This document shows positions 13,253 to 19,652 of a DNA stretch of 28,702 bases, piece by piece; positions within the stretch are counted from its first letter, which is position 1, and each line of letters starts with the position of its first letter. A program made the position numbers and the translations under genes. Origin of the DNA: a virus. Below the pieces are notes generated by a model that ran no database searches, was not told where the DNA came from, and saw only the letters and a program-made list of their open reading frames with translations. The stretch lies in UHGV virus genome UHGV-0186015; one strand, given 5' to 3'.

Positions 13253-13795
13253 ATGAATTATCCAACTATCGTTAACGGCATCGATTTCCGAGATCTGATT
13301 TTTGTGGCAAACAACGATCCGGTTACAGATTCTTTTATGGTGGCAAAAGCATTTGGAAAGCTGCCGAAGAACGTAGTTCGTGACATTGAACGAACCATAG
13401 AAGCTTGCCCTCCTGAGTTTGATACAAAGCTCAACTTTGAGCTTTGCTATAAAAACAATGAGTTACAGAATGGTAAACCGCAAAAATTCTACCGTCTCCG
13501 CAAGGATGGGTTGATGCTTTTGGTTATGTCCTACACCAAAAAAGAAGCAATGCGTATCAAAATTGCTTACATCAACGCATTCAACTGGATGTACGCCATG
13601 CTTCAGGTTGGTCATCGTCAATTTGAAGAAGAGCGAAACGCCGTAATGCTGGAGTACATGAAAGAAAAGGATGTCGCCAGCATGTCTGGCCGTCTGCTCA
13701 ATCGCTGGGGAAAAATTAAGAAGCCTCAGCTAATGGCGAGAATTGAACGCCTTGAACAGCACGGGCAAACCGTAATCCCCGGACTCACTAATTAA
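13253..13795 (+). CDS. Rha-family phage regulatory protein
   Basis: 180 aa; N-terminal FVANNDPVTDSFMVAKAFGKLPKNVVRDIERTIE matches the Rha N-terminal domain. Confidence 0.7.
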   Translation: MNYPTIVNGIDFRDLIFVANNDPVTDSFMVAKAFGKLPKNVVRDIERTIEACPPEFDTKLNFELCYKNNELQNGKPQKFYRLRKDGLMLLVMSYTKKEAMRIKIAYINAFNWMYAMLQVGHRQFEEERNAVMLEYMKEKDVASMSGRLLNRWGKIKKPQLMARIERLEQHGQTVIPGLTN

Positions 13796-14274
13796 CGGCA
13801 GTACCGCGAAACAACCCAAGCCAGAAAGTGGGGAAATAACACTGGCAGCCACTGAAAGATGAACCTCCAGCCTTATGGCAAAAAAGATTCTTTGTGGTGG
13901 CGGACTGATGGAAAGACATCGGTTATTGCAGAGACCATTCAATGAGTGGTCTCGACAATGGCTTATACCCTACACGGGATAACTTAACTGATATCCCTTT
14001 TAACGGATAAACGGAGCCAACAATTGCAGAGAATGTCGGCATTATGGCAGTACAATTTGGATAAAGCGGGGATTAGAAAGATAGAGGCGAGCCGGTCAGA
14101 TAAAAATGAATCAGGCTCAAAGTGAAGCGGAAAAGGTCTGTGGCACAAACTGATGCTGCCATAATTACAGCCTGATGACTTGTGGAATGAAACATGTTGA
14201 ACCTCCTTAATTGATGTGATTCGAGTGAGGAAGGCATTCTGTCCTTCTATAGTGTCCAGTAAATCAAACAGGAA

Positions 14275-14298
14275 GCTTGTCTCACGTGTGAGACAAGC
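14275..14298. repeat. 24-bp perfect palindrome GCTTGTCTCAC-GT-GTGAGACAAGC, followed by two overlapping shorter palindromes
   Basis: Read directly; adjacent GAGTTGTA-N5-TACAACTC (14311-14331) and AACTCTT-CA-AAGAGTT (14327-14342). Confidence 0.7.
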
Positions 14299-14318
14299 CT
14301 CTCCATTAGCGAGTTGTA

Positions 14319-14783
14319 TTGATTACAACTCTTCAAAGAGTTCATTACTGGGTAGATGAAAATAGTTTCACGATGAATGGAGGAGGCTATGTTGGTGGCT
14401 TCTTCATTGGAGTACATATGCCCCCACGAACCCCAAAAACCTGCCGTGTTCGCGGCTGCCGCAATACCACCACAGATCCGTCAGGATATTGCAAAAGCCA
14501 CATAAGCGAAGGCTGGAAGCAATACAAGCCGGGCCAGTCCTGTCATCAGCGCGTTTATGATTCGCGGGTTTGTCCCTCATGCTCGCCAGCCCTGTGCGAG
14601 GGTGGAAGAAACAGGGCATGTATTCAGGAGCGTGCGACCGTGGTCGCACGGTATCTTTGTCAGGAGGTTTTGATGAAAGAGTCGCATAAATTTAATTCAA
14701 TAATGGAACGATTCAGTGCTCCTGAGCGAGAGGCTTACAACATGCATTCATTGAGTGCCTGTTGTAATATCGCCAAATATTAA
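14319..14783 (+). CDS. Cys-rich hypothetical ORF (possible zinc-binding protein or spurious)
   Basis: 154-aa ORF with ~13 Cys, rare Arg codons, and an internal 9-bp palindrome at 14631-14650; coding status doubtful. Confidence 0.25.
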   Translation: MITTLQRVHYWVDENSFTMNGGGYVGGFFIGVHMPPRTPKTCRVRGCRNTTTDPSGYCKSHISEGWKQYKPGQSCHQRVYDSRVCPSCSPALCEGGRNRACIQERATVVARYLCQEVLMKESHKFNSIMERFSAPEREAYNMHSLSACCNIAKY

Positions 14784-14915
14784 TCAGGTGCGCGAGATGT
14801 CGGCTAATACTGACCCTGACGAAATGTGGCGCTGCTTTAATCTGAAAGATGGTGCAGACGACCTGTAGTTCGCATCCATTCCTGATTACCCTATTCAAGT
14901 TGATGAGACAGAAAC

Positions 14916-15161
14916 ATGACAGCAGCTAAAGAGCAGATTGAATATGAGCTAAATGAATTCTTCGCGTCCGCCCTTGGTGATGTGTTTAAAAGTTGCCGAC
15001 TGGCTGAAAGCGTATCGGATTACCAGATCTCTACTGTTAGTTTTCCAACGGAAAAAAACGCCTGGCTGGAGCTAGGTGAATTACCCGTGATTATCGAGTT
15101 GTCTAACGGACGTCGCTTTGAGATTAGTGCGTCTGAATGGTTGCAAATCACACCGCTTTAA
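14916..15161 (+). CDS. Hypothetical small acidic protein immediately upstream of cos
   Basis: 81 aa with protein-like composition; weak RBS; no family recognised. Confidence 0.4.
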   Translation: MTAAKEQIEYELNEFFASALGDVFKSCRLAESVSDYQISTVSFPTEKNAWLELGELPVIIELSNGRRFEISASEWLQITPL

Positions 15162-15189
15162 ATTAAGCCCGCAGTCCACCTTGGCTACT

Positions 15190-15425
15190 GACATTCGCTA
15201 GTAGCTGGGTCCTTTCCAGCGATCCGGCAGGCTACGGGGCGGAAGGCGCGCGGGTTTTCGCTATTTATGAAAATTTTCCGGTTTAAGGCGTTTCCGTTCT
15301 TCTTCGCCGTAACTTAATGTTTTTATTTAAAACACCCCCTGAAAAGAAAGGAAACGACAGGTGCTGAAAACGGGCTTTTTGGCCTCTGTCGTTTCCTTTC
15401 TCTGTTTTTGTCCGTGGAATGAACA
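15190..15425 (+). other. cos: cos site (cosQ-cosN-cosB) of a lambda-like packaging system
   Basis: From ~15250 onward (CGCGGGTTTTCGCTATTTATGAAAATTTTCCGGTTTAAGGCG...) the sequence follows the phage lambda left end up to the nu1 start; upstream GGGTCCTTTCC...ACG resembles the lambda right end. Candidate 12-nt cohesive end at 15236-15247. Confidence 0.8.
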
Positions 15426-15945
15426 ATGGAAGTCAACAAAAAGCAGCTGGCTGACATTTTCGGTGCGAGTATCCGTACCATTCAGAACTGGCAGGAGCAG
15501 GGAATGCCCGTTCTGCGAGGCGGTGGGAAGGGTAATGAGGTGCTTTATGACTCTGCCACCGTCATAAAATGGTATGCCGAAAGGGATGCTGAAATTGAGA
15601 ACGAAAAGCTGCGCCGGGAGGTTGAAGAACTGCGGCAGGCCAGCGAGACAGATCTGCAGCCAGGGACTATTGAGTACGAACGCCATCGACTTACGCGTGC
15701 GCAGGCCGACGCACAGGAGCTGAAGAATGCCAGAGACTCCGCTGAAGTGGTGGAAACCGCATTCTGTACTTTCGTGCTGTCGCGGATCGCAGGTGAAATT
15801 GCCAGTATTCTCGACGGGATCCCCCTGTCGGTGCAGCGGCGTTTTCCGGAACTGGAAAACCGACATGTTGATTTCCTGAAACGGGATATCATCAAAGCCA
15901 TGAACAAAGCAGCCGCGCTGGATGAACTGATACCGGGGTTGCTGA

Positions 15946-15971
<26 letters not shown>
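15426..15971 (+). CDS. nu1: Terminase small subunit Nu1
   Basis: 181 aa, MEVNKKQLADIFGASIRTIQNWQEQGMPVLRGGGKG..., recognisably lambda gpNu1 at the same length. Confidence 0.97.

Positions 15972-19652
<3,681 letters not shown>

Follow-up and report, generated by a model that had tools for sequence, protein, structure and literature searches.

The stretch between the Rha gene and cos of this prophage carries a cluster of inverted repeats and a cysteine-rich open reading frame (ORF) of doubtful status. This raises the question of whether the repeats are binding sites for a regulator, parts of a structured RNA or traces of recombination, and whether anything in the interval is a gene. A sequence-only reading of the window (the whole stretch of DNA analyzed, 28,702 nt) had seen no confidently coding gene here and had offered these three explanations for the dense dyad symmetry, with Rha as one possible ligand. 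The features recovered by comparison with related phages and E. coli genomes are listed in Table 1.

Table 1. Features in and around the Rha-cos interval (window coordinates)
Feature	Position	Strand	Description
Rha-family gene	13253-13795	+	Left landmark, outside the feature under study; Pfam Phage_pRha (E = 1.7e-21) and ORF11CD3 (E = 8e-26)
Post-Rha/KilA conserved segment	13796-14033		Mostly unannotated; 97-99% identity to HK620, HK022, Sf101, CUS-3 and epsilon34
Module A	14034-14417		Conserved unannotated cassette; 83-97% identity to SfIV and E. coli/IMG-VR prophages
Vestige of SfIV-type overlapped o-spanin (Rz1)	14034-14125	+	C-terminal tail; frame comparison with SfIV Rz1
40-codon ORF	14073-14195	-	MFHSTSHQAVIMAASVCATDLFRFTLSLIHFYLTGSPLSF; AAGGAGG (14208 to 14202), 6 nt before ATG
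Weak sigma-70-like promoter candidate	14236-14263	-	TTTACT-16 nt-CAGAAT; between hairpin 1 and the small ORF
Hairpin 1	14272-14301	-	13-pair stem with 6 G-C pairs, 4-nt loop, tail CUGUUUGAUUU (14271 to 14261)
Hairpin 2	14311-14331		8-bp AU-rich arms, 5-nt loop
Hairpin 3	14327-14342		7-bp arms, 2-nt centre (AACTCTT ca AAGAGTT); overlaps hairpin 2
154-aa "Cys-rich ORF"	14319-14783	+	TTG at 14319, stop at 14783; open frame across four unrelated pieces
HNH endonuclease 5' fragment	14418-14553	+	~45 codons; N-terminal zinc ribbon only, CxxxxC ... CxxH
Recombination junction	14551-14564		Microhomology GCGnTTATGrTTCG between HNH gene and element B
Element B	14553-14660	+	Lambda-type, non-coding; ends in hairpin 4 (14631-14639 / 14642-14650, 9-bp arms around GT), tail GUAUCUUUGU
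Truncated start of another phage gene	14673-14783	+	36 codons; AGGAGG at 14662-14667
81-aa ORF	14916-15161	+	Rare, just before cos; annotated hypothetical protein WP_000122986.1 in L191

Mosaic layout of the interval

Judging from its segment-wise homologies, the Rha-cos interval of this lambda-type (Nu1/A, cos) prophage was pieced together by recombination, a case of ordinary prophage mosaicism. The same origin is supported by L191, the closest E. coli relative, which matches the window at 97.8% over 14550-16500 and is devoid of 14034-14549. Of 5,426 complete E. coli genomes, moreover, a single one contains a match to a query spanning the HNH/element B junction. The segment behind the Rha gene is common to many lambdoid and P22-like phages, where it follows Rha/KilA genes. 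It extends to 14076 in a group of relatives (class 2) whose HNH loci lack exactly 14077-14412, and there the alignment passes from ...GATTAG to TACATATG and directly into HNH.

As suggested by these alignments, an L191-like parent with the order Rha/KilA, conserved segment, element B and cos would have recombined with an HK97/SfIV-type phage. The left crossover would lie within the shared post-Rha/KilA segment and the right one in the 14-bp microhomology inside the HNH gene, and the two together would have brought in module A and the first ~45 HNH codons. The junctions lie at ~14034/14077 and 14551-14564 rather than at the palindromes, and the palindromes are already present in intact relatives, which speaks against their being recombination scars. 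In the window, the hairpins and their cassette are passengers of recombination with no tie to Rha.

The 154-aa ORF is, by its composition, a chimeric pseudo-ORF, an accident rather than a gene, and the doubts first cast on it were justified. Its frame consists of intergenic read-through, HNH codons 1 to 45, the non-coding element B and the first 20 codons of another truncated gene. A 198-aa YDC107_1 protein begins with a stretch that shares 70% identity with the first 20 residues of this last piece, after which homology stops. The HNH piece aligned by BLASTP with residues 1 to 49 of the intact 116-aa HNH protein of L003, and its DNA is 85-97% identical up to ~14553. Zinc-ribbon motifs of cos-adjacent phage HNH endonucleases have been described, and the motif CRVRGC...CKSH of the window fits their CxxxxC and CxxH classes (PMC3592412). 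The earlier guess of an HNH or zinc-ribbon fold was therefore right for the residues encoded from 14418 to ~14553. The catalytic domain is missing: no Pfam HNH match was obtained for the window ORF, compared to E = 2.8e-16 (residues 66 to 112) for the intact relative, and tblastn found no credible HNH C-terminal half anywhere in the window. Because this domain is absent and PGAP labels the same relic "HNH endonuclease, incomplete" in L002, we consider the fragment a pseudogene. Compared with HK97 gp74-type HNH proteins (PF01844), it has kept the Shine-Dalgarno (SD) sequence, the ATG, residues 1 to 49 with their zinc ribbon and the location upstream of cos and the terminase genes, but not the catalytic part. 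Moreover, intact HNH copies adjoin P27/HK97-type terminase genes (with a P27-family small terminase), whereas the window has lambda Nu1/A. A lambda-type terminase is not known to need an HNH partner.

Two other interpretations of this frame were rejected. An N-terminal extension of HNH from the TTG at 14319 was discarded because a 1-nt deletion in SfIV breaks the frame, and 14553-14655 was not retained as decayed HNH since it aligns at 91-95% to a non-HNH element of lambda type. This element B is kept in phages 2B8, PhiR46_1 and YDC107_1 as well as in E. coli L002 and L191, and its core occurs in more than 1,000 of the 5,426 E. coli genomes. Its closing stem-loop, hairpin 4, scored as terminator-like on the plus strand and shows in 2B8 a compensatory G-C to A-T change in the stem together with a better U tail (GACUUUUGUCGUU). 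Hairpin 4 thus looks like a rightward terminator, which would act on the late strand upstream of cos or of inserted accessory genes.

Inverted repeats and hairpin 1

All four inverted repeats reported earlier are present where they had been placed, with arms of 7 to 11 bp. They had been taken for palindromes, in part perfect ones; none is perfect, since each has an asymmetric centre of 2 to 5 nt. The repeat at 14275-14298 has perfect 11-bp arms around an asymmetric GT and extends to 14-nt arms with 93% complementarity, forming hairpin 1. It is the longest in the window, in which first-order Markov shuffles predict 0.10 repeats with arms of this length. With an arm length of 8 bp or more and a loop of 8 nt or less as criteria, the window contains 11 repeats, compared to 4.0 under the null, and 3 of the 11 fall within the 376 bp from 14275 to 14650. 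The cluster exceeds chance, so the impression of dense dyad symmetry holds.

In minus-strand RNA, hairpin 1 would fold into a stable stem-loop followed by a U-rich tail. For the window and L003, a consensus scan gave this stem-loop a terminator-like score, restricted to the minus strand. The same scan called no terminator in SfIV, where the tail contains few U residues. Three stem pairs change on both sides. The compensatory changes U-A to or from C-G and C-G to or from A-U are seen in 8 of 18 distinct sequences, and a third pair behaves likewise. None of 500 shuffles reached the covariation score, which reflects few events because all relatives are closely related (at least 83% identical). 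RNAalifold independently recovered the core of the stem. Template-switch mutation can likewise alter both arms of a DNA palindrome, with no need for selection. Additionally, 95.3% of the cells are paired on the minus strand versus 84.2% on the plus strand, with 31 versus 5 G.U cells. These compensatory changes and the strand-asymmetric tolerance of G.U pairs support, for hairpin 1, the structured RNA that had been proposed. Like intrinsic terminators, it combines a G+C-containing stem, a short loop, a U-rich 3' tail on one strand and compensatory stem evolution; unlike them, it has an interrupted U tract, which is degraded in SfIV. The most likely role of hairpin 1 is that of an intrinsic terminator or insulator acting leftward, or else that of an RNA or leader stem-loop.

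In hairpin 2, one pair changes from U-A to C-G and RNAalifold does not choose the stem; about 88-90% of the cells are paired on either strand, so that its strand is ambiguous. Hairpin 3 is perfect in 6 of 47 variants, the window's included, and most variants carry AAGAATT, leading to U.G on the minus strand and C.A on the plus strand.

Module A and its 40-codon ORF

Hairpins 1 to 3 belong to a conserved stretch that we call module A. It was detected in 632 of the 5,426 complete E. coli genomes, many of them O157:H7, and PGAP usually annotates nothing there; O157 Sakai is not among the best 60 matches. Module A usually has the lysis cassette on one side and an intact HNH gene on the other. Its indel core, 14077-14412, represents a 336-bp presence/absence polymorphism immediately 5' of the HNH ATG, and the full cassette is found in ~25 of 80 HNH loci. 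The palindromes had been expected to recur in close relatives, which is true in part: class-2 loci and L191 are without them. In L080-type relatives, L163 and L179, the right flank differs and the hairpins remain with the small ORF. Rfam searches at gathering and permissive thresholds returned nothing relevant for the cassette, and a description of it was not found in a literature search. We infer that hairpins 1 to 3 belong natively to module A and that this is a small unit read leftward, in antisense orientation to the late operon.

Module A also holds the minus-strand ORF of 40 codons, whose SD sequence and ATG are kept in every variant recovered and whose frame is never broken. Among an unbiased set of relatives, 9 of 10 variable sites in codons 20 to 40 are synonymous third positions, and residues 21 to 40 are invariant. 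This constrained half overlaps, on the opposite strand, the o-spanin tail of SfIV-type phages, in whose frame the substitutions are non-synonymous. The N-terminal half varies like unconstrained sequence and is never disrupted. In terms of substitution pattern, the ORF shows a clear coding signature. Given this signature and the annotation of the 81-aa ORF in L191, the earlier view that confidently coding genes are missing from the interval is only partly right. Conserved coding signal adjoins the palindromes and does not run across them. Two ORFs that cross the hairpins on the plus strand (47 aa from 14216 and 42 aa from 14377) were rejected as genes because of a 1-nt insertion in L047-type variants and, in SfIV, a 1-nt deletion and the lack of an ATG. 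As for the o-spanin vestige, SfIV Rz1 ends in ...LSALGQCNLDKAGIRRIEASRSGRSESGSK before its stop and the window frame in ...SALWQYNLDKAGIRKIEASRSDKNESGSK.

The 40-aa product has no Pfam family, and searching a large protein database returned only 17 near-identical entries labelled "hypothetical" or "uncharacterised". A scan of genome contigs with the back-translated alignment of the small ORF gave one match, which was spurious. Pfam gave no match for a 54-aa ORF either. No Pfam family and no tblastn match in the phage collection were found for the 81-aa ORF, and the DNA around it occurs in 2 of the 5,426 genomes. In many relatives, the 40-codon gene lies co-oriented just upstream of bor/iss. 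Sigma-70 promoter scans of both strands gave nothing strong. The candidate in Table 1 scored 7.7 bits in our own PWM scan, above the 99.9th percentile of window scores and below the threshold of the consensus scanner; its CAGAAT is invariant in all variants. Scans of the window, SfIV and L003 revealed neither a convincing minus-strand promoter upstream of hairpin 1 nor a terminator downstream of the 40-aa ORF. Read leftward, hairpin 1 is directly followed by a promoter-like site of low strength and then by a strong ribosome-binding site and the conserved 40-codon gene.

This organization recalls phage morons, which are accessory gene cassettes inserted between conserved lambdoid genes, a concept reportedly drawn from comparison of the HK97 and HK022 genomes, with lambda bor as an example. 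A classical moron has the order promoter, gene, terminator. Module A is likewise small, dispensable and located at a gene boundary with presence/absence polymorphism, and it is oriented against the late operon like bor, which it adjoins together with iss in many relatives. However, its terminator-like hairpin lies upstream of the gene, the promoter candidate is weak or doubtful and the scans showed no terminator behind the gene.

Weighing the explanations for the hairpins

Overall, we consider it probable that the interval is a mosaic with an accidental 154-aa frame, in which hairpins 1 to 3 are native to module A, hairpin 1 acts as a stem-loop or terminator and hairpin 4 closes element B. A related reading is that hairpins 1 to 3 form the body and terminator of a stand-alone antisense sRNA of ~70-130 nt, or a leader or attenuator of the 40-codon ORF. 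HnrS (EcOnc10-12) is a 66-nt Hfq-binding sRNA of EHEC prophages Sp9, Sp10 and Sp12 that modulates virulence and was recently found in the lysis-to-packaging niche (PMC13502914; PMC4104026). Module A shares this niche and strand logic: HnrS of Sakai Sp12 likewise runs against the late genes, in the gap that separates Rz from the HNH/DNase and terminase genes, and it ends in an intrinsic terminator. Its place in Sakai was inferred from terminator and seed because the EcOnc10 coordinates (2014 supplement) do not exactly align with the current Sakai record. The order of a 5' hairpin, a single-stranded GCUAAUGG and a terminator hairpin would suit an sRNA as well, and hairpins 2 and 3 are mutually exclusive, as in attenuators. 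However, the terminator stem has no competitor in either alternative hairpin, the U tail is interrupted, no promoter like that of HnrS (TTGAAA-17-TAAAAT) lies upstream, and 14197-14417 showed neither an Rfam family nor homology to HnrS in a blastn search (word size 7) against the Sakai HnrS region. Only element B matched there: its core is 86% identical to the sequence flanking the inferred HnrS terminator hairpin, beside which hairpin 4 has the equivalent position and the opposite direction. A stand-alone sRNA or attenuator is therefore possible, but in our view unlikely.

The hairpins could also act in the plus-strand late mRNA, as processing or stability elements (e.g., RNase III sites) separating lysis from packaging genes, or in translational control of the HNH gene that follows. 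The pairing of hairpin 1 favors the minus strand, class-2 HNH genes function without the cassette, and where flanks differ the cassette keeps with the small ORF rather than with HNH, which makes this quite improbable despite a plus-strand fold whose stability likewise exceeds that of shuffles (z = -3.2), hairpin 2 wobble pairs that favor the plus strand in several variants, and a further stem (14376-14385 / 14399-14408) abutting the HNH ribosome-binding site whose G.U pairs form only on the plus strand. Another explanation is that the hairpins have no function and are kept by mutational bias, intrastrand template switching perfecting quasi-palindromes, and by hitchhiking with neighboring genes. 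The dispensability of the cassette, the minority of perfect hairpin 3 variants and the few independent events among such close relatives would fit. We nevertheless consider it very unlikely, since the stem of hairpin 1 is 95% paired across every variant found, its imperfections are strand-biased, and Sakai has a distinct stem-loop, the HnrS terminator, at the equivalent position downstream of element B.

A role of the palindromes as operators recognized by a dimeric regulator, be it Rha or another phage protein, seems more doubtful still. Dyad symmetry speaks for it, and the half-sites of hairpin 1 change together (TCTCAC to TCCAAC in both arms), as in operator/repressor co-evolution. Yet DNA recognition would not bias the symmetry breaks to G.U on one strand, and each phage has a single copy of the site without a repeated half-site array. 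The idea of Rha-binding sites in particular does not agree with the distribution of the cassette, which travels with HNH genes where no Rha/KilA is present (SfIV, L003) and is lacking both in 2B8, which carries Rha, and in L191, which has a KilA-N gene at that position. Least probable of all is a type I toxin-antitoxin system with a 40-aa membrane toxin and the hairpins as regulatory RNA. A small ORF with a strong SD and a structured region upstream is compatible with it, and the window contains a distal CCUCCUCC able to pair with this SD; this sequestering pairing is not conserved in SfIV, the ORF has no family match, and its product has no hydrophobic stretch of transmembrane grade, the best 15-aa Kyte-Doolittle window reaching 1.1-1.5 versus 2.4-3.2 for six known toxins.

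Under the preferred account of a mosaic interval and hairpins native to their modules, the dense dyad symmetry comes from terminator-like stem-loops, whether imported or native, and not from Rha operators. The 154-aa ORF is best annotated as a fragment of an HNH pseudogene to which unrelated remnants have become joined. Furthermore, the analysis reveals two widespread unannotated elements, module A and element B, in the lysis-to-packaging gap of E. coli prophages, and these represent cheap candidates for prophage sRNA and small-protein screens. Going further, we tentatively suggest, as no more than an outside chance, that module A represents a previously undescribed antisense unit with autonomous expression in HK97-like/lambdoid prophages, encoding a 40-aa protein and a structured RNA that ends at hairpin 1. 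If so, this unit would be present in about 12% of complete E. coli genomes and would parallel HnrS, which fills the same niche in other prophages. In lysogens, it would reduce the leaky expression of the HNH nuclease and packaging genes next to it or, alternatively, be co-expressed with bor/iss as a lysogenic-conversion function.

Mosaic layout of the Rha-cos gap

The window is a lambdoid prophage with its holin, lysozyme and Rz genes at 11.7-13.05 kb. Using similarity searches and alignments, we split the interval between the Rha-family gene and cos into five pieces, (a) to (e).

Features of the Rha-cos gap and its flanks
Feature	Position	Strand	Remarks
Rha-family gene	13253-13795		Pfam Phage_pRha + ORF11CD3
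Piece (a)	13796-14033		97-99% identity to a mostly unannotated segment of P22-like (HK620, Sf101, CUS-3, epsilon34) and HK022-like phages
Piece (b), module A	14034-14417
40-codon ORF	14073-14195	minus	ATG 14195, stop 14073-14075; AAGGAGG 6 nt before ATG
Hairpin 1	14275-14298		11-bp perfect arms, asymmetric GT centre; extends to 14-nt arms, 93% complementarity
Hairpin 2	14311-14331		8-bp arms, 5-nt loop
Hairpin 3	14327-14342		7-bp arms, 2-nt centre; overlaps hairpin 2
Piece (c)	14418-~14553		HNH endonuclease gene, 5' end
Piece (d), element B	14553-14660		91-95% identity with lambda-like phages 2B8, PhiR46_1, YDC107_1 and E. coli loci L002, L191
Hairpin 4	14631-14650		9-bp arms, GT centre
Piece (e)	14673 onward		truncated gene start, rare 81-aa ORF (14916-15161), cos
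Lambda-type cos	cosN about 15237-15248		after ~1.45-kb gap 3' of the Rha-family gene
Nu1	15426		then A at 15946

The counterpart of piece (a) lies 3' of KilA/Rha-type genes in the P22-like and HK022-like phages. In the window, piece (a) contains an imperfect hairpin 3' of Rha (13925-13959), and two relatives (L041 and L073) carry a different hairpin at this position, the L073 stem being a 14-bp perfect one. This is a position-conserved stem-loop and probably terminates the Rha/KilA accessory gene.

Over 14550-16500 the window is 97.8% identical to E. coli locus L191, which lacks 14034-14549, and HK97/SfIV-type prophages carry module A and the HNH 5' end, followed by the remainder of HNH and a P27-type terminase. 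Because of this, the window looks like a recombinant of L191-like and HK97/SfIV-type prophages. In the alignments, the right-hand crossover falls in a 14-bp microhomology (GCGnTTATGrTTCG, 14551-14564), and a query spanning this junction matched only 1 of 5,426 complete E. coli genomes. The arrangement is a rare and probably recent event.

Directly left of cos, the plus-strand 81-aa ORF is annotated in L191 as hypothetical protein WP_000122986.1; only 2 of the 5,426 genomes contain the DNA around it, and neither a Pfam family nor a tblastn match in phages was found for it. Between cos and the Nu1 start, an inverted repeat with 26-nt arms (15345-15401, 85% complementary) matches lambda at the same position and is presumably an already known element in the leader of lambda-type cos/Nu1.

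The cysteine-rich reading frame

The sequence-only reading had guessed at an HNH or zinc-ribbon fold for the 154-aa Cys-rich ORF. In an intact homologue of 116 aa from the prophage locus L003 (3385-3735), Pfam places the HNH domain at residues 66-112, and the window ORF matches this homologue well only over residues 1-49. Pfam detected no HNH domain in the ORF, and no C-terminal HNH remnant was found elsewhere in the window. The N-terminal zinc ribbon (CRVRGC...CKSH) is what remains; it agrees with the CxxxxC and CxxH classes known from HNH enzymes encoded next to cos (PMC3592412) and explains the cysteine richness. The guess held for the core of the ORF.

Upstream of the HNH start, a 1-nt deletion in the SfIV alignment disrupts the frame, and its openness from TTG 14319 to that start is an accident. 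Downstream, the frame crosses the non-coding element B and then the first 20 codons of another gene (ATG 14673 behind AGGAGG), which share 70% identity with the beginning of a 198-aa protein from YDC107_1. The equivalent relic in the E. coli locus L002 is labeled "HNH endonuclease, incomplete" by PGAP. The 154-aa ORF is a chimeric pseudo-ORF. The second gene is itself truncated, a plus-strand stub of 36 codons (14673-14783) with a strong SD, whose first 20 residues match the starts of hypothetical proteins (198-286 aa) from phages YDC107_1 and PhiR46_1.

Inverted repeats and their possible roles

All four inverted repeats were found where they had been reported, though none of them is a perfect palindrome. 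Hairpin 1 is the longest repeat in the entire window (0.10 expected per window). The window has 11 repeats whose arms reach at least 8 bp (null, 4.0 per window), and 3 of these fall within 376 bp. The cluster is beyond chance.

Among 18 distinct sequences, double changes keep the stem of hairpin 1 (U-A<->C-G and C-G<->A-U in 8, a third pair once), and by eye some variants have A-U in place of an outer G-C pair. None of 500 shuffles reached the observed covariation score, pairing was lost when the 3' partners were moved by 1-3 columns, and RNAalifold independently recovered the stem core. Paired changes in DNA palindromes can also arise by template-switch mutation, and the relatives sampled are at least 83% identical, so that few independent events are represented. 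Pairing is strand biased, with 95.3% of the cells paired on the minus strand versus 84.2% on the plus strand and 31 versus 5 G.U cells, which argues for recognition as RNA rather than DNA. A U-rich tail (CUGUUUGAUUU) is present on the minus strand only, and a consensus scanner called a minus-strand terminator at hairpin 1 in the window and in L003; it made no such call in SfIV.

The suggestion of a structured RNA is supported for hairpin 1; the other proposals are not. As Rha operators, the repeats should follow Rha, but module A occurs without Rha or KilA in SfIV and L003 and is absent both from 2B8, a phage with Rha, and from L191, where a KilA-N gene occupies that position. Recombination scars were also proposed; junctions are plentiful, yet the palindromes lie off them and pre-exist in intact relatives. 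Our conclusion is that hairpin 1 forms an RNA stem-loop in a putative leftward transcript; its most likely role is that of an intrinsic terminator or insulator, or else of a leader element. A weak promoter-like site (TTTACT-16-CAGAAT) and the 40-codon ORF come directly after it; sigma-70 scans found no promoter upstream of it on the minus strand.

For hairpin 2, there is one U-A -> U.G -> C-G series, and pairing is strand ambiguous (88% versus 90%). Hairpin 3, favoured by RNAalifold within a larger fold, is perfect in only a minority of variants, including that of the window; in most, the minus strand has U.G and the plus strand C.A. Hairpin 4 lies outside HNH and closes element B, and scored as terminator-like on the late strand. 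Phage 2B8, where it stands about 85 bp left of cosN, shows a compensatory G-C -> A-T change in this stem together with a good U tail; the AGGAGG-ATG of an inserted gene comes after it in the window, PhiR46_1 and YDC107_1. Overall, the gap is an ordinary product of lambdoid mosaicism, made up of a fragment of an HNH pseudogene and several stem-loops that resemble terminators.

The antisense cassette and element B

Module A was found in 632 of the 5,426 genomes, many of them O157:H7, and PGAP nearly always leaves the stretch without annotation. About 25 of 80 IMG/VR loci collected via the HNH protein carry it. Another 16 lack exactly 14077-14412, ...GGAGATTAG being joined to TACATATG directly into HNH. 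Module A is dispensable. In decayed prophages with other right flanks, the hairpins remain with its left part. In one IMG/VR prophage (L047, 1829-2503) it is partly tandem duplicated, as two blastn matches 61 bp apart. In SfIV, plus-strand 14034-14125 codes for the C-terminal end of an overlapped o-spanin; the window has a vestige of it.

On the minus strand, the 40-codon ORF is predicted to be a small antisense gene. Among the relatives gathered by HNH similarity, a sample unbiased for this stretch, 9 of 10 variable sites in codons 20-40 are third positions, all synonymous, and LFRFTLSLIHFYLTGSPLSF is invariant; read in the overlapping spanin frame, these substitutions change the amino acid (D/G, K/R, N/S). 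Rare non-synonymous variants occur in this C-terminal half. Variation is free in the N-terminal half, with 8 variable sites at first, 9 at second and 4 at third codon positions, and this half is uninterrupted in 47 of 47 variants. In its most common setting, the ORF is immediately followed by a co-oriented bor/iss. Database searches gave no Pfam family or named homologue, and in hydropathy the product falls far short of type I toxins. About 630 E. coli genomes have the ORF without annotation.

The non-coding core of element B (14550-14618, about 70 bp) occurs in more than 1,000 of the 5,426 genomes, with inconsistent annotations. Its copy in O157 Sakai Sp12 (about 1960-2050 in L187, the Sp12 locus) is flanked by Rz and by the hairpin inferred to terminate the antisense sRNA HnrS/EcOnc10. 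Hairpins 1-3 show no homology to HnrS. HNH codons 6-11 (14435-14450) match an arm of the inferred HnrS terminator in L187 at 15 of 16 nt (AAAAACCTGCCGTGTT versus AAAAAACTGCCGTGTT, E = 0.08); this may be chance, or the terminator may derive from an HNH 5' remnant.

HnrS shows that functional antisense RNAs do occur in the lysis-to-packaging gap. A modestly interesting by-product of the analysis is an antisense cassette that is widespread but unannotated and contains a conserved ORF of 40 codons.
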